Source: an uncultured Gammaproteobacteria bacterium (GTDB taxonomy: Bacteria > Pseudomonadota > Gammaproteobacteria > CAVYTG01). From it: a stretch of 64,000 nucleotides of DNA. Positions 4,025 to 26,908 of this stretch are shown piece after piece. The notes under the pieces were generated by a model. The model made no database searches. It saw only the letters and a program-made list of their open reading frames with translations, and was not told where the DNA came from. A program made the translations under genes and the position numbers. The stretch lies in assembly GCA_963771515.1 (NCBI GenBank), contig CAVYTG010000001.1, positions 105,820 to 169,819 of the forward strand, given 5' to 3'. Position 1 is the first letter of the stretch. Each line of letters begins with the position of its first letter.

Positions 4025-4927
4025 TCAAGTTTTGGACCTGTTATATACAAGCTCTGGTCCATAAAGCTCTGCAACTTCTTCATCGCTGATTATTTCGAAA
4101 TTTTCTTCAATATCAATTTGTTCAAGTTTGTTTTCCTGACTCCCTAAGTCGGTTTCAGTGGAGTCAAAAAAAATGCTTTTATGGCTTGAAATATTGAAAG
4201 AATCAGAAAGCTGATAAGAGGTTTTTAAAGATGTGCCCTCCTTGATTAAATTAGAGTCTTCAAGGCTTTTCAGAAAAGCAGTTGCTTCATCCATATTTGC
4301 AAAGGTTAGTTTTGTGATTTTTCCCGGATAATTGTTTTCAGCATATTTCTCACGTTGCGAAGCATCAAGATTTTTGAAGTAATCACTTCTTTGAAATGCC
4401 TCAAAGCTTTCAAACTCAAGGGTTTCAGAGGGATTGGTTTGATTCTGTGAAGCAGATTGATACAAATCTATAATTTGTTGTGAATGTTCAGGTGTTATTT
4501 GGTCAATTTCAAATACTTTTTCCCCAACATTAAGCGCTAGCAAGCAAGTATGATATTCTGCCTTTTGTTTATCATTTTCAGAATCTTGGCTTTGCTCATC
4601 TTGAGCAGTGACCGAAGTGGATTTTATTTGATTTTGAGCGGCTTCTAAAGTATCAAAATAACCATCAATCTGGCCTTTATTATATCCTCTAGTTAGGTAG
4701 AGATGATATTCTTCACCCATATCGGATTTTAGTTGGCGTGATTTTTGATTGATTTTTTCCATATTCTCTTGGTTAGTACCTGATTCAACAGCATCATTCA
4801 ATATTTTTTTTAAATCAGAAAGGGAAGCATTTATTGATTCTAAAAAACCATAATCAATTATTTGGCCTTCAAGCGCTTTAAGCTCAGCCAAAAAATCATT
4901 TATATTAAGTTCATTTAAATCTTTCAT
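4025..4927 (-). CDS. Hypothetical acidic, coiled-coil-rich protein (300 aa), no recognisable domain; effector-like composition
   Basis: Long ORF convergent with dps. Very acidic and Q/E/S-rich with low complexity. No TM segment or signal peptide seen. Confidence 0.5.
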   Translation of the reverse strand: MKDLNELNINDFLAELKALEGQIIDYGFLESINASLSDLKKILNDAVESGTNQENMEKINQKSRQLKSDMGEEYHLYLTRGYNKGQIDGYFDTLEAAQNQIKSTSVTAQDEQSQDSENDKQKAEYHTCLLALNVGEKVFEIDQITPEHSQQIIDLYQSASQNQTNPSETLEFESFEAFQRSDYFKNLDASQREKYAENNYPGKITKLTFANMDEATAFLKSLEDSNLIKEGTSLKTSYQLSDSFNISSHKSIFFDSTETDLGSQENKLEQIDIEENFEIISDEEVAELYGPELVYNRSKT

Positions 4928-17628: not shown

Positions 17629-18825
17629 ATGAATTTATCCAACTATGATGTAGATGAAAAAAGAGGTTTTTTACCTTCTTATAATCCATTAAGAAAATTA
17701 CCCGACAAATATAAAGCTTGGGATGAATGTATAAAGCATTTACCTAAATATTTAATATCGGGGCATGTAAGAAAACATTTAGATTTATTGCCGACTTTAT
17801 CGATAGAAGAACTCGATGATGAGCCTAAGCTAAACAGAGCTATGTTGCTTCTTTCATATTTTGGTCATGCTTATGTTTGGGGAGAAAATAAGGCAGCCGA
17901 TACCATTCCTGCGAATATTGCAAAACCTTGGGTTGCTGTCTCAGAAAAATTAGGTCGTCCGCCTGTATTATCTTATGCTTCTCACGCGCTAAATAATTGG
18001 TATCTTGAAGATAACGAAAAACCTATTGAGCTAGGAAATATTGTGAGAATGCACAATTTTGAAGGGGGATTTGATGAAGATTGGTTTGTATTAATTCATA
18101 TTGCAATAGAAGGCGTTGCTCCGCCAGCGATTAAGGCAATTATTAATTTACAAGACCATGTTAAAACGTCTGATCCGAAATCTGCTTTAGCGAGTTTGAC
18201 AATTTTATCTGAGCAGATTGATAAAATAGTGAAAATCCTTAAAAGAATGCCAGAGAACTGTGACCCTTATATATATTACCATCGCGTTAGAAGGTTTATT
18301 TTTGGGTGGATGGGCAACCCTGTCATTCCTGAAGGTGTTTACTACGATGGTGTCGAAAAATGGAATGGAAAACCTCAACAATTTAGAGGAGAAACAGGGG
18401 CTCAAAGCTCAATTATTCCATGTCTTGATGCTGGGCTTGGTTTAGAGTTTGATCCTAATAGCCCTTTATATAAGCACTTAATAGAATTAAGAGATTACAT
18501 GCCTCCTTTACATCGACAGCTTGTTATTGACCTGGAAAAAGCAGAGAAACAGAACTCTGTTAGGGTATTTATCAAAAATAATGCAAAAAATTATCCGAAA
18601 CTTATTGACCTTTACAATGAATGTTTGGAAGGCATTTATCAGTTTAGGCTACAACATTTAAATTTTGCAAAAGCCTATATAAACATTCAAGCAGAAAGAG
18701 CTTCTAGCCCTGTCAATGTTGGAACAGGGGGCACCCCCTTTATAAAATATCTTGGGGATCATTGTGATGAAGTATTAAAACAAAAATTGACCCATGTTCA
18801 TCAAGATGAATTAGTTCAAGCCTGA
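17629..18825 (+). CDS. Indoleamine 2,3-dioxygenase (IDO)-family heme dioxygenase homologue
   Basis: Collinear with human IDO1 from memory: YDVDEKRGFLPSYNPLRKLPDKYKAWDECIKHLPKYL against [42 protein letters not shown] against MAYVWG; RGETGAQSSIIPCLDAGLG against AGGSAGQSSVFQCFDVLLG; LRDYMPPLHRQ against MRRYMPPAHRN; GTGGTPFIKYL against GTGGTDLMNFL. Confidence 0.75.
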   Translation: MNLSNYDVDEKRGFLPSYNPLRKLPDKYKAWDECIKHLPKYLISGHVRKHLDLLPTLSIEELDDEPKLNRAMLLLSYFGHAYVWGENKAADTIPANIAKPWVAVSEKLGRPPVLSYASHALNNWYLEDNEKPIELGNIVRMHNFEGGFDEDWFVLIHIAIEGVAPPAIKAIINLQDHVKTSDPKSALASLTILSEQIDKIVKILKRMPENCDPYIYYHRVRRFIFGWMGNPVIPEGVYYDGVEKWNGKPQQFRGETGAQSSIIPCLDAGLGLEFDPNSPLYKHLIELRDYMPPLHRQLVIDLEKAEKQNSVRVFIKNNAKNYPKLIDLYNECLEGIYQFRLQHLNFAKAYINIQAERASSPVNVGTGGTPFIKYLGDHCDEVLKQKLTHVHQDELVQA

Positions 18826-18872
18826 TTTGGCGTACCCTAATCTAAAATTGCTTATAGGCTCACAAATAATTT

Positions 18873-19850
18873 TTGAGGTTTATGATGGACCACTATCGTT
18901 CTTTTATTGATACCTGGGATAACTATGCCACGGTAAGATCTAGACCAAGACGGCTAATAGATGCTAACCATGTTCATGAAGTTTATCATTATCCCATTTC
19001 TCGAATGCCTGTTGCTGTGCATCCCATTGTTGCTGCAAAAGGAGATTCTTTTTTAAAGAAAATGCTTGCTCAAGCCTGTGTTTTTTACTTGAAATCGATT
19101 GCAAGTCTTGAAACAGAAGTCATAAATAAAGCTGCTTTAACACTCATCAATGGAAATTTATCTCATATAATACCTGAGCCTTTAAAGCTAGACCTACTCA
19201 GCATAGTTGTAGATGAAGCCTATCATGCGCATGTCGCCAGAGATTATAGTTTGCAGTTAAAAAATTTATTAGATTTACCTGATGTTTATGCAAATATTTA
19301 TTCAGATTTAGGCCATTCAATCACCAAGCATATGAGTGATTTAAAGCCTGACTGTCAAGATGACTTTCTGGTCATAGCCGTATGTATAGGGGAACACACT
19401 TTAACCCCAGAAATAGCGAGTATGGGGCGCGAGGAAAATGTTGCTTCAAGTTTTACTGGCCTGATGAAAGACCATGTTACAGATGAAGGTCGTCATGCAA
19501 CCTTATTTAAGCATGTTCTGAAATTAGTTTGGGCAAACTTAACTCTGATAAAAAAGCAATCTATTTCAAAAGTATTACCTCATTTTGTCAAAGAATATCT
19601 ATCTGAAAGCTATGCTAAAAAATTTATAAAAGATTTGCTCTTACACGAAAAAATCAGTGAACAAGAGGTCGATAAAATCATGAAAGAAAGTTTTCATCAA
19701 TGTTACTTAGGCGAAAACAATAGTTCTTTCAGAAATATTTGTAAATTGTTTCAGTCTTCAAGTTTATTGGATGACCCTTTATTGGTATCAGAATTTCAAA
19801 AAAATCGTATAGACATAGGAATTGAGAAGTGCGTAGACTCAACTTTATAG
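18873..19850 (+). CDS. Ferritin-like diiron-carboxylate oxygenase candidate (AurF/CmlI-like N-oxygenase or heme-oxygenase-like diiron oxidase)
   Basis: Two E-x(~30)-[DE]ExxH pairs: ...LETE...(x33)...DEAYHAH and ...GEHTL...(x28)...DEGRHAT. 325 aa, no TM. Assignment rests on motif spacing only. Confidence 0.35.
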   Translation: MRFMMDHYRSFIDTWDNYATVRSRPRRLIDANHVHEVYHYPISRMPVAVHPIVAAKGDSFLKKMLAQACVFYLKSIASLETEVINKAALTLINGNLSHIIPEPLKLDLLSIVVDEAYHAHVARDYSLQLKNLLDLPDVYANIYSDLGHSITKHMSDLKPDCQDDFLVIAVCIGEHTLTPEIASMGREENVASSFTGLMKDHVTDEGRHATLFKHVLKLVWANLTLIKKQSISKVLPHFVKEYLSESYAKKFIKDLLLHEKISEQEVDKIMKESFHQCYLGENNSSFRNICKLFQSSSLLDDPLLVSEFQKNRIDIGIEKCVDSTL

Positions 19851-22800
19851 TCAGAGGAGAATCAAATTTTACGCTTAGGTGTATCCAGGCGCTCTCTGAT
19901 CTCGGTCATAATATATTATGCCTTGAAACCGAAAATGTAAAAATTCTAGAATTTGCATCTAAAGAAAACATAGATAGTGTTCAGCCTAGTGAGCAATCAA
20001 AAACCCAGGATACAAACAGTATCTATGTTTCAATAGATGCTCTCGGCGACCCTTCTCATCCTTTAAATAATATAGCGTGTCATATTCGACTACATAGGGT
20101 TGAACCTGAAGATAATAAAAATAAAAGCTACTGGAGCGTTGACTTAAAAAATAATGTTTATTTAAAACAACCTCCCCAAGATCTGCTCGCGGATGAAGAT
20201 GAGCTTTTAACAAATTTAGAGTTTATCATCAATCAATTTGCCAGATTAGGACTTCATGATCCTGGTCTAAAAGAAGCAAGTTCAAATAACTTTGTCACAG
20301 AAATCCCTATTGCTTCAGAGCTTGATTATAGATATATATTAGGAGGATTATTATTTTTTATTTCTCTATTTAAAAAAGAAGAACTCATAGAATTAACCCT
20401 TCCTGTCAATGATATGGGTTTCTTCTATCCAGATTTCCAAGGAAAACTTCAAAAAGCTGAAAAGTATGAGATTAATTTAAGCCAAGTACACACCCCTTCT
20501 CATTTGCTTTCAGTCGTAGATCAAACGCTCCAGGATTTTAAAGGAAATCATAATCTTTTTTGTCTCTCCAGTTGCCTATACTTTAAATTCGATGTTGAGG
20601 ATACCCAAAAATTGGGTTTATATCTCTCAACATTTAATAAACTATTTTTATTACATAAGGGGCAAAAAAAACAAGACATACAGAATCTTATCCGCCTTTT
20701 CAGGCTGATTTATGAGGCTATTTCAAGTGTGCAAAACCTAGATTGCTCGCTTAATGATCTCAACTTAGTTGATTTGGATACCATAAAATTTTTAAGTCAA
20801 ATAGGTGGCTTTACTCACTACCACCCGCCCCAAGCAGAAGAAACAATTATTTCTGCTATTTCAAAAAACATTAAAAATTATCCTGATCACATTGCAATTG
20901 AATATAGTGATCAGTCATTAACCTACGAAGCGCTGGGGAAGCTTTCTGTCCATTTATCTAAGCAAATTTCAAAAAAACTAGGTCCCGTAAAATCTGCAAA
21001 GATTATTCTTTGTGTTGAAAGAGGAATTAATCTGGTTGCTACCATTTTAGCAATCTGGCGCTTAGGACATGCGTATGTTCCGGTTGCTTTAGATTTCCCA
21101 GAAGAAAGAATGCTTGAAATTATTCAGCAATTAAACGAACCTCTTATAATTACTGATCATAATCGAGCTGATTTTTTTACACACTATCCTAATTTTATCA
21201 ATTTATCTACGTTAGCATTAGAAAAAAGGAATGATCTTGATTTGAGCCAAGAAGAGCTCATGACAGGAATCTCTGGTGATGATCTTGCTTATATCATCTA
21301 TACCTCTGGTTCTACAGGGGCTCCCAAAGGCGTTATGATGCATCATAAAGGTGCACTTAACATGATACAATGGACTGTAGAAAACTACCCCATTACTTCA
21401 AAGGATAAAGTGATACAAATGGCATCCTTTGCTTTTGATTTTTCAGTCTGGGAAATGATGTCGGCTCTTACCTCAGCTGCTTGCTTGGTTCTCACAGAAG
21501 AGAAAAAATATAGAGATCCAAGGTATTTAGTCAATCTAATAAGAGAAAAACAAATTACGATTCTTGGATGTGTGACTTCTTTGTTTCGATATCTGTTAGA
21601 TGAACCTGGATTCTCTCAATGCACTAGCTTAAAACGAATAGTAGTCGGTGCTGAACCTTTAACTCTTTCTATAAAAAATAAACTGTACGAAATTCACCCT
21701 CATGTCACCTTATATCATGGTTATGGACCAACTGAAACAGCGATAACATCTGTTCATTGGGAATGTCCAAATACTTATAACCATTTAGATATACCGATTG
21801 GAAAGCCCATAGCGAACACCAAAGTTGCTGTAGTCTCTGAATCTCTTAAAATACTACCACCAGGGTTGCCTGGTGAGCTCCTAATTGGTGGCATTGGTGT
21901 AGGGCGAGGGTATCTCAATCAAAGTGATCTTACAAACCAAAAATTTATTCATTTAAATATCTTAGGAGATACCGATTTATTTTATAGAACGGGTGATATC
22001 GTTCGGTGGAGTGGCAATCATTTAATTTTTGTTGGTCGTAAAGATCAAATGATAAAGTTACATGGCCTGCGCATAGAGTTAGAGGAAATTGAAAAGGCGA
22101 TGGAATCTCTAGCTTATATCAAGGCAGCTGCTGTTAAATTTCATAAAAATGAAAAACGAGCTTCGCTTATCGGATATTTTATTGTAGAACCGTCCCAACT
22201 GACTAAAAATGAAAATTTAACCCAAAAGCATTTAAATTTATGGAAAAATTTTTATGATGATTCGTACAAAGATTCACACAATCGACATGAAACAACATTT
22301 AATACCGTTGGTTGGAAAAGCACTTTTACAAATCAGGAATATTCCTCTGATTTGATGAAAGAATGGAGGGATGAAATTGTAGAATTAATCCTAGGATACA
22401 ACCCTAATAACGTTCTTGAAATTGGTTGCGGAACAGGTCTTATTTACCATGCTCTAAAAGGAAAAATCAAAAAATATATTGGAATAGATTATGCTCAAGT
22501 CATTATTGACAGAATGCTGAGCACAGAAGCTGCTGAGATAGAATTAGGAAAAAGCAACTTTTTCCACTGCTCCGCCAATAAGATAGAAAAAATTAAGCCT
22601 CTTTTGGATAATGCGCTCCCCATTGACTGTGTCGTGATTAATTCTGTTGTCCAGTATTTCCCTAGCACTGAGTTTCTAGAAAACGTCTTAGATAAGATTA
22701 TAAAATACATAAATCCTAACTATATTGTTTTAGGAGACATATTGGATTTTAGAACAAACAAACTTTTTTATGAAAAAGAATATTCTGTTAAGAAAGAACT

Positions 22801-25800
22801 GGGGCATATTTCCCTTTCAAAAACAGAGTTTATACAAAATCGCTTAAAGACAGAAAAAGAACTTTTTATTCATCCAGTTTTTTTCATAGACTTTGCTAAA
22901 AAAAATCGTGCACTACAATCCATTGGTCTATTTCCTAAAATGGGTGTTGGAAGTACCGAGATGAATCAATTCAGATATAATGTTGTACTATCCACTCAAC
23001 ATGGAAGCAAGATAAAAGCAAATTCTATACTATGCAAAAATCCTCTGGAAATAAAAAAGCAAATTCAAACCCAAGCACTCATTAAAACGGATAACCATTG
23101 GCTAAATTGTACTGATGGTTCTCATCATACCAGGCGTTTACCTAAAGAAATACAGCTTGAAATGAAACAAAGTGGTCTAGATGTAAATATTGTACTTGAC
23201 CCGTTAACGCCAGAATATCTCTATATCATTAAAGATGAAAATTTTGGTCACTTGCAAAGTCTAGATTCACAAAATCTACGCTCAGAAGGGAAAAATGTTA
23301 TTCACTATTCCAATGTAACTTCTCTATTAAAAGAAGAAGTAATCTCAAAAGTAATATTCGAAGACTTACAAAAAAAATTACCACACTATATGATTCCAAG
23401 CCTTTTTAAACAGCTTGAAGTATTTCCGATGACCTCGAGTGGTAAAGTTGACAAGAAGCGTTTACCTACCATTATAGAACTTGAAGCTGCGCTATCTGAT
23501 AATCCAGAAGAAGCAAAATTACAAAAAATTCTTTCAGAAGCCATCGGAATAAAATCAATAGGAATAGATGAAAATTTCTTCTCTTCAGGTGGAAATTCCT
23601 TATCAGCGATTAATGCAGTGTACAAAATTACAGAAAATTTTGACGTGGATTTCTTTGTTAAAGATTTATTCGAATTTGATTCTGCAAAAAAAGTTGCTCA
23701 ATTTATAAAAGATAATAGAAAAAATAAAGTAACCAAAATAAAAAAGCAGCCCTTTGAGCGTTATTCTGATTTTCTTTTAACCCATGCACAAAATAGGTTG
23801 TGGTTCCTACATAAACTTGATGAGCAAAAATCTAGCGCATATAACGTACCTCTGTTAATAAAATTAAACGGACATCTAAATATTAAAAAGCTTAAGGATT
23901 CCATCAATACACTTATTTCAAAACATGATGCTTTAAGATTAATCTTTATTGATAAAAAAGGAATAGCATTCCAGAAAATTTTAGAGAAATATGAGATTGA
24001 GCTGCCTGTTGTCGACTTTCCTTCCCATCAAGCTACTTTAAAAGGAATCAACGATGTCATTAATCAGCCTTTTAAGTTAGATACAACCCCCCCCATTAGG
24101 TTTACTATATTCACAAAGAATAATTTAGCCCAATACCTGGTTATTGTAATACATAATATCATAACAGACGGTTGGTCTATGTCGTTACTTATTGATCAGC
24201 TTTATAAAATCTATAACGACCAGGAGGAAGCTTTTCAAGCTCATAATCCTTTAGGATTTATACAAGAATATTTACCATTTACTTCCAATAAACCCAAAAG
24301 CTATTACTTAGAAGGCATAAATTACTGGAAAGAATACTTAAATAATTTTGTGGAATTAAACTTCCCTTATCCTTATAAAAACGTAAAAAAAGTAGAAAAT
24401 CATTTAGAGTCAAAAAGGGAAACTTTATCAGGCGAAACGATAAGTAATATATATCAGGTAGCAAGCCATTATAACGTTTCACCTTTTGCCATTATTAAAT
24501 CCACTTTTGCTGTTTTGCTGAATAAATACACGCAACAAGAAGACATTGTTTTTGGTTCAGTATTGTCAAATAGGGAGCTACAGTCTTTAAAAGATGTTAT
24601 TGGATTTATGGTGAATACAGTCGTATTTCGGTATAAACTTGACGAAGCCACGATCTTTAAAGATTTAATAGTTCAGGCTCAAAACTCTACGAGGTTGGCA
24701 TATAGCTATCAAGATATTCCCTTTGAAGATGTTGTTAAACAAGTGACAAAATCTCGTTGCTTGAACAAAACCCCAATTTTTCAATTTATGTTTATTTCAC
24801 AAGACGTGAGTGAGATAAACACCCTGAAGCTTGGAGAATGCTACTGTAAAGTAGTGCCATCAGCGCCAAATCAAGCAATGTTTGCAATGACTTTCAATTA
24901 TGTTCTTACAAAAAAGGACCTAAAGGTTGATATTTACTATGATGCTTCTCTTTTCTCTCCGACTTCAATTGACCATTTTTTAGCAAATTTTTTCCATTTA
25001 CTAAAAACATTGTTAAATAACCCCTTGGGGCTGATCGAAAAGGTTTCTATCGTTTCTGAACATGAAAGGAACTTGCTATTAACTCAGTATAATCCTAAGC
25101 CTGATAGAAATCTCGTCAATAAATTAGTTTACCCCTTGTTTCATGAAGCTGCGTATGAAAATTTAGATAGAATAGCCTGTTTAGATGAAACAGGCAGTAC
25201 TACGTACAAAGCGCTATTATCCCAGGTTAATAAGTTTTCTAATATTCTTTCTGTCCCAACAAATGTTGCTACGGCAGCCATTATTTCGACTCCTGGTATC
25301 TTATCAACCGCGCTTGCATTGGCTTGCTTAAAATGTGGTATTACTATTGTTTTTATAGACCCAAGTCTACCTGCTAGCCGAATAGAATATATGCTTAAAG
25401 CATCCAAAACCGATATTTTATTTTCTCATGAATTAAATAATGCTATAACGATTCCAAAAAACATTCAGTGTTACCATTTTGCTCACGATGAAACAGTAGC
25501 AAGTACAGAAAAAGGCTTTAATATTGTAAAGGAGGTTACACCTGATCATTGCGCATACATTGTGTTTACTTCTGGAACAACAGGAGCGCCAAAAGCTGTA
25601 CAAGTGTTACAGCGTAATCTTGCTAATGCAATTTTGCATTTTAGAAAAGTACTTAATATGGGCCAACTTGATAAAGTATTAAGTATGACACGCCCCAGTT
25701 TCGATATTTTTTATTTAGAGATGCTCCTTCCCATTATATCAGGGTCTAGTGTTCAATTTATGCACCCAGATTTGAGTATTGACCCATCTGAAATCATTAA

Positions 25801-26893
25801 AAATATAAGTAACTTTGAACCCACCCTCATTCAAGCAACGCCCTCTAGATGGGAGTTAATACGCGCTGAATATATTTCGAAAGAAAAAAACTTTCATGTT
25901 CCTAAAATACTAACTGGTGGGGAACCTCTTTCACATCAACTGCTAACATTTTTATACAGTCAATCTGATCTATTGCTGAATGTTTATGGTCCCAGTGAAA
26001 CCACAATCTGGTCAACTGAATATAAATTCGGTAATGTGAGTCAAATTATATCCATAGGCAAACCTATATCAAATACAGAATGTTATATTTTAGATAAACA
26101 CAAGAACATAATACCAATAAATGCGATAGGGGAGCTATATATCGGTGGAGAAGGCGTAACCAAAGGCTATCTGAATGACACTTTAAAAAATAAAGCAGCT
26201 TTTTTCAACATAAGATTAGACAATGAAAATAAATATTTATATAAAACAGGAGATTTAGCTTCTTGGGATGAAGAAGGGAATTTACTATTTCATGGAAGAG
26301 TAGATAAGCAGATAAAAATAAGAGGATACCGTATTGAACCCGGTGAAATACTATTTTATTTAAAAAAATATCCAAGCGTTGAACATGCCCATGTTTTATT
26401 TCAAAAAGATCAGTCAACCTTGTGTGCCTTTATTAAGGTAAAAAAGAGCTATGAAGATCAATTCAATACTTCACAACTGAATGCTTTTTTGAAGCAAGAA
26501 TTACCCGAATATATGATTCCTTCCCATTATTATATCGTTGAAAATATACCGTTAAGTGTTAATGGAAAGGTAGACGAATTTGCTTTGAATAACTTGAGAG
26601 AAAAACAGTCTTATCAAGAGGTAAAAAATATTAAATTACCTTCCAATGATTTACAAAGCAAGCTTTGTACGATTTGGCAAAACGCTTTAAATATAGATGA
26701 ATTTAGCGTAGACAGCAGCTTCTATGAATTAGGAGGACATTCTCTTTTGGCGCCCAAGATTGTCTGGGAAATTAATGCGATATTTGGCTGTGATTTAACC
26801 ATAAGAAACTTTATTACGAACAATACCATAGAAAAATTGGCCATTTTTATAAAAGATAGGCAGGTTACTATGGTTGCCTCTGAAGTAGATTAA
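19829..26893 (+). CDS. Bimodular nonribosomal peptide synthetase: unknown N-terminal ~330-aa region, then A (with embedded N-methyltransferase), T, C (HNxxxDG), A, T; no TE/R domain
   Basis: Module 1 A motifs: LTYEALG, LAYIIYTSGSTGAPKGV, FDFSVWE, YGPTETAI, GELLIGGIGVGRGYLN, YRTGDIVRW, GRKDQMIKLHGLRIELEEIE; MT insert VLEIGCGTGL; then LPHYMIPS and SGKVDKKRLP. T1 is FFSSGGNSLSAI. C has HAQNRLWFL and IHNIITDGWS. Module 2 A motifs: YIVFTSGTTGAPKAV, NVYGPSETTI, GELYIGGEGVTKGYLN, YKTGDLASW, GRVDKQIKIRGYRIEPGEI, NGKVDEFAL. T2 is LGGHSLLAPKI. Its start overlaps the upstream gene by 22 nt. Confidence 0.9.
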   Translation: MRRLNFIVRGESNFTLRCIQALSDLGHNILCLETENVKILEFASKENIDSVQPSEQSKTQDTNSIYVSIDALGDPSHPLNNIACHIRLHRVEPEDNKNKSYWSVDLKNNVYLKQPPQDLLADEDELLTNLEFIINQFARLGLHDPGLKEASSNNFVTEIPIASELDYRYILGGLLFFISLFKKEELIELTLPVNDMGFFYPDFQGKLQKAEKYEINLSQVHTPSHLLSVVDQTLQDFKGNHNLFCLSSCLYFKFDVEDTQKLGLYLSTFNKLFLLHKGQKKQDIQNLIRLFRLIYEAISSVQNLDCSLNDLNLVDLDTIKFLSQIGGFTHYHPPQAEETIISAISKNIKNYPDHIAIEYSDQSLTYEALGKLSVHLSKQISKKLGPVKSAKIILCVERGINLVATILAIWRLGHAYVPVALDFPEERMLEIIQQLNEPLIITDHNRADFFTHYPNFINLSTLALEKRNDLDLSQEELMTGISGDDLAYIIYTSGSTGAPKGVMMHHKGALNMIQWTVENYPITSKDKVIQMASFAFDFSVWEMMSALTSAACLVLTEEKKYRDPRYLVNLIREKQITILGCVTSLFRYLLDEPGFSQCTSLKRIVVGAEPLTLSIKNKLYEIHPHVTLYHGYGPTETAITSVHWECPNTYNHLDIPIGKPIANTKVAVVSESLKILPPGLPGELLIGGIGVGRGYLNQSDLTNQKFIHLNILGDTDLFYRTGDIVRWSGNHLIFVGRKDQMIKLHGLRIELEEIEKAMESLAYIKAAAVKFHKNEKRASLIGYFIVEPSQLTKNENLTQKHLNLWKNFYDDSYKDSHNRHETTFNTVGWKSTFTNQEYSSDLMKEWRDEIVELILGYNPNNVLEIGCGTGLIYHALKGKIKKYIGIDYAQVIIDRMLSTEAAEIELGKSNFFHCSANKIEKIKPLLDNALPIDCVVINSVVQYFPSTEFLENVLDKIIKYINPNYIVLGDILDFRTNKLFYEKEYSVKKELGHISLSKTEFIQNRLKTEKELFIHPVFFIDFAKKNRALQSIGLFPKMGVGSTEMNQFRYNVVLSTQHGSKIKANSILCKNPLEIKKQIQTQALIKTDNHWLNCTDGSHHTRRLPKEIQLEMKQSGLDVNIVLDPLTPEYLYIIKDENFGHLQSLDSQNLRSEGKNVIHYSNVTSLLKEEVISKVIFEDLQKKLPHYMIPSLFKQLEVFPMTSSGKVDKKRLPTIIELEAALSDNPEEAKLQKILSEAIGIKSIGIDENFFSSGGNSLSAINAVYKITENFDVDFFVKDLFEFDSAKKVAQFIKDNRKNKVTKIKKQPFERYSDFLLTHAQNRLWFLHKLDEQKSSAYNVPLLIKLNGHLNIKKLKDSINTLISKHDALRLIFIDKKGIAFQKILEKYEIELPVVDFPSHQATLKGINDVINQPFKLDTTPPIRFTIFTKNNLAQYLVIVIHNIITDGWSMSLLIDQLYKIYNDQEEAFQAHNPLGFIQEYLPFTSNKPKSYYLEGINYWKEYLNNFVELNFPYPYKNVKKVENHLESKRETLSGETISNIYQVASHYNVSPFAIIKSTFAVLLNKYTQQEDIVFGSVLSNRELQSLKDVIGFMVNTVVFRYKLDEATIFKDLIVQAQNSTRLAYSYQDIPFEDVVKQVTKSRCLNKTPIFQFMFISQDVSEINTLKLGECYCKVVPSAPNQAMFAMTFNYVLTKKDLKVDIYYDASLFSPTSIDHFLANFFHLLKTLLNNPLGLIEKVSIVSEHERNLLLTQYNPKPDRNLVNKLVYPLFHEAAYENLDRIACLDETGSTTYKALLSQVNKFSNILSVPTNVATAAIISTPGILSTALALACLKCGITIVFIDPSLPASRIEYMLKASKTDILFSHELNNAITIPKNIQCYHFAHDETVASTEKGFNIVKEVTPDHCAYIVFTSGTTGAPKAVQVLQRNLANAILHFRKVLNMGQLDKVLSMTRPSFDIFYLEMLLPIISGSSVQFMHPDLSIDPSEIIKNISNFEPTLIQATPSRWELIRAEYISKEKNFHVPKILTGGEPLSHQLLTFLYSQSDLLLNVYGPSETTIWSTEYKFGNVSQIISIGKPISNTECYILDKHKNIIPINAIGELYIGGEGVTKGYLNDTLKNKAAFFNIRLDNENKYLYKTGDLASWDEEGNLLFHGRVDKQIKIRGYRIEPGEILFYLKKYPSVEHAHVLFQKDQSTLCAFIKVKKSYEDQFNTSQLNAFLKQELPEYMIPSHYYIVENIPLSVNGKVDEFALNNLREKQSYQEVKNIKLPSNDLQSKLCTIWQNALNIDEFSVDSSFYELGGHSLLAPKIVWEINAIFGCDLTIRNFITNNTIEKLAIFIKDRQVTMVASEVD

Positions 26894-26908
26894 TAATATT
26901 GGTGAAGT

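Follow-up and report, generated by a model that had tools for sequence, protein, structure and literature searches.

Through diiron N-oxygenases, natural products acquire hydroxylamine, nitroso, nitro and diazeniumdiolate groups, to which they owe metal-binding, signalling or antibiotic activity. To our knowledge, those studied so far in association with a nonribosomal peptide synthetase (NRPS) are all of the type encoded by the pvf cluster of Pseudomonas entomophila and the ham cluster of Burkholderia cenocepacia. The oxygenase gene considered here resides in a stretch of 64,000 nucleotides (the window) from an uncultured gammaproteobacterium (GCA_963771515.1, contig CAVYTG010000001.1, positions 105,820 to 169,819 of the forward strand), where it is preceded by a homologue of indoleamine 2,3-dioxygenase (IDO) and followed by an NRPS gene. 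Its product adds a deeply divergent member to a known kind of enzyme, and the cassette to which it belongs adds a further variant to NRPS-coupled N-oxygenation.

The oxygenases of the described systems, PvfB and HamC, reportedly act on valine tethered to a carrier, oxidising its amino group (PMC11659414, PMC10194917), with L-valine tethered to HamD serving as the substrate of HamC (PMC11659414). Both share a Pfam family and seven metal ligands with the window enzyme and are its nearest characterised relatives (28-30% identity, 135-161 bits). As in pvf and ham, the oxygenase gene of the window lies directly upstream of an NRPS gene whose product carries the same N-terminal leader motif. The resemblance is nonetheless partial. 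The window oxygenase falls in a separate, well-supported clade of a neighbor-joining (NJ) tree; its partner NRPS has the architecture leader-A(M)-T-C-A-T instead of A-T-R; the specificity code of the first adenylation domain (A1) is DFWGVGGITK rather than DALFVGIVLK; and the cassette contains an IDO, whereas neither pvf nor ham does. In addition, tblastn searches of the window (pvf/ham proteins at E ≤ 0.01) returned no homologue of PvfA/HamA, a heme-oxygenase-like diiron oxidase (HDO), of the cyclase PvfD/HamE, of CmlA or of a thioesterase.

Similar comparisons can be drawn with AurF and CmlI, the arylamine N-oxygenases of aureothin and chloramphenicol biosynthesis. These share with the window enzyme a ferritin-like four-helix-bundle fold (TM 0.75-0.84) and the E/ExxH/E/HxxxExxH ligand set, including the extra histidine, but are only 14-18% identical to it in sequence (18-28 bits), and Arg96 of AurF is not conserved. 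Moreover, AurF acts on a free arylamine, whereas the branch containing the window enzyme is genetically tied to NRPS starter modules. The central features of the locus, numbered within the window, are as follows.

17629 to 18825, + strand: IDO homologue, 398 aa (PF01231, 327 bits)
18882 to 19850, + strand: non-heme diiron N-oxygenase of the AurF superfamily (PF11583), 322 aa, assigned from family, ligands and predicted fold
19110 to 19112, 19215 to 19217, 19224 to 19226 and 19392 to 19394, + strand: codons of oxygenase ligands E77, E112, H115 and E171
19473 to 19475, 19485 to 19487 and 19494 to 19496, + strand: codons of oxygenase ligands H198, E202 and H205
19829 to 19850, + strand: 22-nt overlap between the oxygenase gene (stop TAG at 19848-19850) and the NRPS gene (GTG start at 19829)
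19829 to 26893, + strand: NRPS, 2354 aa, leader - A1(M) - T1 (Ser 1257) - C - A2 - T2
19829 to 20866, + strand: N-terminal leader of the NRPS, ~345 aa (residues 1-345), a fold without assignment
~22190 to 23380, + strand: TioS-like N-methyltransferase embedded in A1 (NRPS residues ~790-1180), with the S-adenosylmethionine (SAM) motif VLEIGCGTG
~24149 to 24169, + strand: C-domain active-site motif HNIITDG (NRPS residues 1441-1447)

Family, metal site and branch of the oxygenase

The open reading frame (ORF) of the oxygenase is intact from its mechanical start, TTG at 18873. The likely start is ATG at 18882, which has a GAGG at 18875-18878 upstream and yields a 322-aa protein identical to one database entry. 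A sequence-only reading of this ORF had picked out four motifs as the ligand pattern of a ferritin-like diiron enzyme. All four are present, namely LETE (residues 76-79), DEAYHAH (111-117), GEHTL (170-174) and DEGRHAT (201-207), with a spacing of 35 residues from E77 to E112 and of 31 from E171 to E202. The family match and the invariance of the ligands described below indicate that the pattern is not a product of chance.

The predicted family membership was borne out by Pfam, where residues 31-239 match PF11583 (AurF) at 42.2 bits, above the gathering threshold of 29.6 (E 7.5e-11). By comparison, the NCBIfam equivalog model for AurF (NF045603) gives 28.7 bits against a cutoff of 620, and the protein is therefore, on sequence grounds, a member of the AurF superfamily but no orthologue of AurF or CmlI. 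A phmmer search of PDB sequences recovered AurF (3chh/2jcd, E 1.5e-5) and CmlI (5hyg, E 0.01), and the alignment places E77, E112/H115, E171 and H198/E202/H205 opposite AurF E101, E136/H139, E196 and H223/E227/H230. The seven-residue site (E, ExxH, E, HxxxExxH) is complete in the window enzyme and invariant in 36 of 36 aligned homologues, which are 20-37% identical to it; W12, R19, D111, Y114, D201, G203 and W217 are also invariant in this alignment. The seventh ligand, H198, which sits in the segment HVTDEGRH and had not been listed by the sequence-only reading, is the extra histidine that is a hallmark of AurF and CmlI.

An AlphaFold2 model built on the 36-homologue alignment (pLDDT 92.4, pTM 0.91) positions these ligands on four long helices (residues 55-89, 99-130, 156-182 and 189-219), and the alignment with AurF predicts that the seven side chains converge on one diiron site. 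When the model was compared with the PDB using Foldseek, the top matches were CmlI (5hyh, TM 0.75/0.84) and AurF (2jcd, TM 0.77/0.79), followed by acyl-ACP desaturases and the R2 subunit of ribonucleotide reductase (RNR-R2) at TM 0.3-0.45. Family match, ligand set and predicted helical bundle thus agree that the enzyme is, as had been proposed, an AurF/CmlI-type member of the ferritin-like diiron oxygenases.

The HDO identity that had been proposed alongside it does not stand, since the Pfam search gave no match to Haem_oxygenas_2 or HamA_HO-like families and the fold matches (CmlI/AurF, desaturases and RNR-R2) are ferritin-like only. The broader alternative, that the protein is no diiron enzyme at all but an HDO or a non-metalloprotein with a chance ExxH pattern, has in its favour solely a sub-threshold match to DUF445 (26.3 bits, cutoff 33.8). 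Set against the Pfam E-value, ligands that do not vary among 36 relatives, a confident model resembling CmlI and AurF, and the missing HDO family match, it is effectively refuted. That the protein is a diiron oxygenase of the AurF fold can accordingly be regarded as established; iron binding and O2 activation are predicted from sequence and model.

A difference from AurF is apparent near the substrate. Arg96 of AurF, which we take to be the residue that anchors the substrate by binding its carboxylate, aligns with Ser72 of the window enzyme, a position occupied mostly by Asp across the clade, while AurF Tyr93 corresponds to Tyr69. In direct phmmer comparisons with the window enzyme, members of the enzyme's own clade reach 194-210 bits, HamC-type sequences 161, PvfB 135-136 and Streptomyces diiron oxygenases 86-91, compared with 27 for AurF and 18.5 for CmlI, both of which were partial cores only. 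In the bootstrapped NJ tree, the window enzyme groups with sequences from Legionellales, Rickettsiales and Francisella with 100% support, with the PvfB/HamC clade beside this group and AurF/CmlI as the outgroup. It is thus established that the oxygenase belongs to the NRPS-coupled branch whose characterised members are PvfB and HamC.

A word-indexed search returned 68 relatives, the best non-self matches being just 36-40% identical, and when 1.84 billion representatives were scanned exhaustively with HMMER, 604 matched at E ≤ 1e-3, 334 at E ≤ 1e-10 and 51 at E ≤ 1e-30; among those of full length, the nearest are 36-37% identical. These searches expose a wider clade, comprising the 51 and many natural oxygenase-A-T-C fusions, whose members come chiefly from Legionellales, Rickettsiales, Francisella and related bacteria associated with hosts. 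In a scan of GTDB species genomes, P. entomophila pvfB, Burkholderia hamC and a Legionella quateirensis protein are 28%, 30% and 37% identical, respectively. One further relative (P0048) resides in an operon of HamA-HO-like, AurF, A-T-R NRPS and polyketide-cyclase genes, which is the pvfABCD/ham arrangement.

Coupling of the oxygenase to the peptide synthetase

The window proteins were compared by tblastn with 90 related loci. An adenylation domain is present in 86 of these, mostly directly downstream of the AurF-like gene; at one locus (L006) the NRPS is upstream instead, and at the four loci without an adenylation domain the contigs end too early. At least seven natural fusions of an AurF-like domain with A-T(-C) on a single polypeptide were confirmed. 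In Legionella quateirensis ATCC 49507, one 917-aa ORF (L011, 9959-12712) comprises AurF-like, A and T domains, and six proteins from the exhaustive search (P0213, P0214, P0219, P0220, P0223 and P0225) are AurF-like, A, T and C fusions. This conserved synteny, together with the fusions and the kinship to PvfB and HamC, lends strong backing to the earlier suggestion that the oxygenase modifies an NRPS substrate.

The junction between the two genes is consistent with this relationship. The GTG at 19829, which has an AGGA 8 nt upstream, coincides precisely with Met1 when the N-termini of 14 homologous NRPSs are aligned to it, and this alignment supports both the NRPS start and the 22-nt overlap that had been read from the sequence. 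Translational coupling of oxygenase and NRPS, also suggested at that stage, is therefore plausible. The N-terminus that begins at this codon contains, within its first ~30 residues, a motif, M-x-x-L-x-hhhh-G-x15-G-H, common to 15 partner NRPSs including PvfC and HamD, with M1 and H27 unchanged throughout and conservation of G10 and G26 at 90% or more. The surrounding leader gave no family match, and a homology search with its 345 residues was empty. A single-sequence AlphaFold model of it has low confidence (pLDDT 41), and a profile of the 15 leaders retrieved a weak KtrA/TrkA-N Rossmann-like PDB match (E 2.6e-4), which serves as a lead only. The leader may be a docking domain for the oxygenase.

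Downstream of the leader, A1 is interrupted by a methyltransferase domain; among solved structures, its best relative is the A-M-A of TioS (5wmm, E 1.3e-29), which methylates the backbone nitrogen. The A1 code appears to represent a scaffold of the threonine type in which the pocket residues are smaller, and this would be compatible with a bulkier substrate; the A2 code, DILQLGVIWK, is of the glycine type. The active-site motif of the C domain reads HNIITDG instead of HHxxxDG, so that the catalytic second histidine is replaced by Asn. The NRPS contains no TE or R domain and ends in a T domain.

Late action of the oxygenase, or action on another atom, could take the form of hydroxylation of the dipeptide amide nitrogen to a hydroxamate, or of carbon hydroxylation or desaturation. 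For LitN, which is AurF-like, oxygenation at an amide nitrogen has been proposed (PMC10616846). The ferritin-like diiron class does include C-H hydroxylation and desaturation, desaturases are among the distant fold matches, and the unusual HNIITDG motif hints at non-standard assembly-line chemistry. The fusions, however, join the oxygenase to the N-terminus of starter A-T modules, which points to the first residue and not to a finished product. Furthermore, all characterised PF11583 members that we know of are N-oxygenases. We consider such late or carbon-directed action improbable.

The IDO cassette and the nitrogen attacked

The gene upstream of the oxygenase had been named as an IDO homologue, and the PF01231 match confirms this identification; the enzyme presumably supplies N-formylkynurenine or kynurenine. 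IDO homologues are common in bacteria. The closest relative of this one, P0072 (57% identity), is found inside the same kind of cassette, and so are P0074 (55%) and P0078 (52%). A set composed of IDO, an AurF-like oxygenase, an A-T-C-A(Gly)-T NRPS and a major facilitator superfamily (MFS) transporter, with or without a methyltransferase (MT), recurs in four other metagenomic contigs, in the following arrangements.

L091: MFS-IDO-AurF-NRPS-MT, the same order as in the window
L096: IDO (cut by the contig end)-AurF-NRPS-MT
L092: AurF-NRPS-IDO-MFS and a 520-aa gene
L095: AurF-NRPS-IDO-MFS

Measured against L091 and L092, identities to the window proteins are 52-57% for IDO, 35-36% for the oxygenase, 43-51% for the MFS transporter, 36-43% for A1 of the NRPS and 43% for the methyltransferase (L091 only). 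The A1 codes of the five cassettes, DFWGVGGITK in the window and DFWGKAGITK, DFWGICGITK and (twice) DIWHVGGITK elsewhere, conform to D[FI]W[GH]xxGITK, and the A2 codes are of the glycine type (DILQLGVIWK and variants). The pairing of IDO and oxygenase is not accidental, and the oxygenase belongs to a recurring IDO cassette. An IDO gene was found in none of the 90 loci fetched via the oxygenase, which marks the pairing as a feature of one subset only. No description of a cassette combining IDO, an N-oxygenase and an NRPS was found in the searchable literature.

Two other contigs retrieved for their IDO genes have different surroundings. One (L093) has a housekeeping context and does not represent this cassette. 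In the other (L094, 10001-21176), the IDO is 53% identical and its gene has as neighbours those for a CmlA-like β-hydroxylase, tryptophan halogenase, Asp/Glu racemase and multimodular NRPS. No AurF-like gene is visible at this locus, which represents another type of biosynthetic cluster with an IDO.

A related arrangement exists on a plasmid of Candidatus Megaera polyxenophila (L001) and in a Legionellales metagenome-assembled genome (L003), whose clusters combine AurF-like, CmlA-like, thioesterase and MATE genes with an A-T-C-A(Gly)-T NRPS. Their oxygenases are 36-37% identical to that of the window, the NRPS architecture and glycine-type A2 code are the same, and a MATE exporter is likewise present. 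They differ from the window in having a CmlA-like β-hydroxylase and a thioesterase in place of IDO and in their acidic A1 pocket codes, DTEEIGLMNK and DVEEVGLINK. These resemble, in our estimation, codes of the ornithine type, in which case a side-chain amine would be available in those pathways too. The HNIITDG motif is found in L091, L092, L095, L001 and L003, and because both this motif and the glycine-type A2 are common to the two types of cluster, their NRPSs are probably orthologous, with starter specificity and supply enzymes alone having changed. A second, divergent mitochondrial-carrier gene adjoins the Megaera cluster (L001, 6513-7460), so that a eukaryote-type carrier recurs next to these NRPS clusters.

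Precedent for the pairing of tryptophan cleavage with an NRPS comes from the fungal terreazepine pathway, where a dedicated IDO feeds kynurenine to the NRPS and N-formylkynurenine deformylates spontaneously (PMC7448278). A tryptophan-cleaving IDO or tryptophan 2,3-dioxygenase (TDO) is likewise encoded in the NRPS clusters for nanangelenin and daptomycin (PMC7448278), but these systems, terreazepine included, lack a diiron N-oxygenase and belong to other organisms with other NRPS architectures.

Most probably, the enzyme oxygenates a nitrogen of a kynurenine-type starter residue that stems from IDO activity and is bound to its carrier, the α-amine and the aryl amine being the two candidate targets. 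A tentative scheme, to which we give slightly less than an even chance, is that the oxygenase acts in the manner of PvfB and HamC on the α-amine of a kynurenine-type starter that is derived from IDO activity and bound to T1. The oxygenase would be translated together with the downstream NRPS, the adjacent IDO would make kynurenine or N-formylkynurenine from tryptophan, and a kynurenine-type residue would be loaded on the first carrier domain. By analogy with PvfB and HamC, the diferrous centre would then activate O2 and convert the free α-amine of the thioester-bound starter to a hydroxylamine, possibly oxidising it further. Module 2 would next join the modified starter to glycine, with methylation and export to follow. 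We infer the substrate, its tethered state and the nitrogen attacked from the following relationships. Action on the α-amine of a tethered residue is suggested indirectly by the fusions to starter modules and by the published account of HamC (PMC11659414). The A1 codes of partner NRPSs across the branch are varied (Val/Leu-like, Phe/Tyr-like, Thr-like, acidic-pocket and IDO type), and the α-amine is favoured because these starter residues have no other amine that they all share and because it is attacked by the nearest characterised relatives. A kynurenine-type starter is favoured because the IDO set recurs in four other contigs with related A1 codes and has the terreazepine precedent.

Several observations weigh against this scheme. 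It is the neighbouring IDO gene only that suggests kynurenine loading, and the A1 code DFWGVGGITK matches no assignable substrate. Kynurenine has a second, aromatic amine, and purified HamC converts p-aminobenzoate to p-nitrobenzoate in vitro (PMC5878181), so that arylamine chemistry is present within the branch. The TioS-like domain in A1 would compete with the oxygenase for the same α-nitrogen, and the PvfA/HamA and PvfD/HamE partners were not found in the window by tblastn. With respect to phylogeny, the oxygenase lies on a long branch with weakly supported placement inside its clade (bootstrap 10-48 in the NJ tree), members of its sub-clade are known from sequence alone, and the tree offers no support for the IDO-linked oxygenases as one monophyletic group.

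Some of the same evidence suits AurF/CmlI-like chemistry, in which kynurenine, whether free or bound to the carrier, would have its aromatic amine converted to a hydroxylamino, nitroso or nitro group. The HamC reaction with p-aminobenzoate (PMC5878181) is a parallel, all seven ligands are in place, including the extra His typical of arylamine oxygenases, and the conservation of IDO with the oxygenase in five independent cassettes suggests that an aryl-amine residue is likely the distinctive substrate. The α-amine of the window pathway, in addition, is probably methylated by the embedded M domain; the M insertion is peculiar to the window, however, and is missing from the other four IDO cassettes. 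Also contrary to arylamine attack are the scores of 27 and 18.5 bits to AurF and CmlI as opposed to 135-161 to PvfB and HamC, the replacement of AurF Arg96 by Ser72 here and mostly by Asp in the clade, and the fact that the NRPS starter residue of most clade members is without a side-chain amine. The earlier suggestion that the enzyme oxidises the aryl amine of kynurenine is thus strengthened by the finding of IDO beside such an oxygenase in four further contigs but is not favoured by the phylogeny, and we regard arylamine oxidation as possible though doubtful.

Combining these elements, it could be that N-oxygenated kynurenine-glycine metabolites of a new class are the product of the cassette, that the oxygenase has switched its target on carrier-bound kynurenine, from the α-amine to the aromatic one, to give a hydroxylamino, nitroso or nitro aryl ketone, and that the whole was acquired as a low-GC island with a mitochondrial-carrier homologue by what appears to be a Legionellales-like bacterium that shares little with sequenced genomes; taken in its entirety, this is rather unlikely. 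If it were true, the cassette may link to manipulation of host tryptophan/kynurenine metabolism, which is a central defence axis of eukaryotic hosts. More generally, the window defines a second NRPS-coupled cassette, recurring in five places and consisting of IDO, oxygenase, dimodular NRPS and exporters. It provides a defined test case for switching between α-amine and arylamine within the branch and would predict a kynurenine-derived metabolite in bacteria living inside eukaryotic cells.

Genomic setting of the cassette

The IDO, oxygenase and NRPS genes form part of a block of eight co-directional genes (12225-27757), the other members of which are listed here.

12225 to 13763, + strand: MATE efflux transporter, the first gene of the co-directional low-GC block
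13941 to 15521, + strand: 526-aa protein, no family match, probably embedded in the membrane by its several hydrophobic segments
15524 to 16375, + strand: mitochondrial-carrier-family protein (PF00153, 79 bits)
16382 to 17626, + strand: Bcr/CflA-type MFS efflux transporter, 43-51% identical to those in L091 and L092; in L095 an MFS gene follows IDO
26909 to 27757, + strand: stand-alone SAM methyltransferase, with a 43% homologue in L091 and a methyltransferase gene at the same position in L096

Adjacent genes in the block either overlap or are separated by gaps of at most ~180 nt, and the GC content is 32-38%, compared with 40-45% in the flanks. On one side lie the 6S RNA and the gene for 5-formyltetrahydrofolate (5-formyl-THF) cyclo-ligase (11153-11909, - strand), and on the other side lies zapA (28133-28453, - strand). 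These flanking genes are normally adjacent in gammaproteobacterial genomes. Because of this and its low GC content, the block looks like a horizontally acquired, inserted island.

The 526-aa protein shows a weak similarity (22% identity, E 5e-6) to the 520-aa gene product that ends the L092 cassette (L092, 10162-11724), and it may be a dedicated membrane component of the system. A formamidase or other hydrolase was considered for this ORF and rejected in favour of a probable membrane protein, given its several hydrophobic segments and the lack of a family match.

Elsewhere in the window, three ORFs of 245, 363 and 300 aa, at 35932-37828 and 4025-4927, have no Pfam match. The GC content dips to 34.7% in the 36-38 kb segment, which may be another acquired segment.

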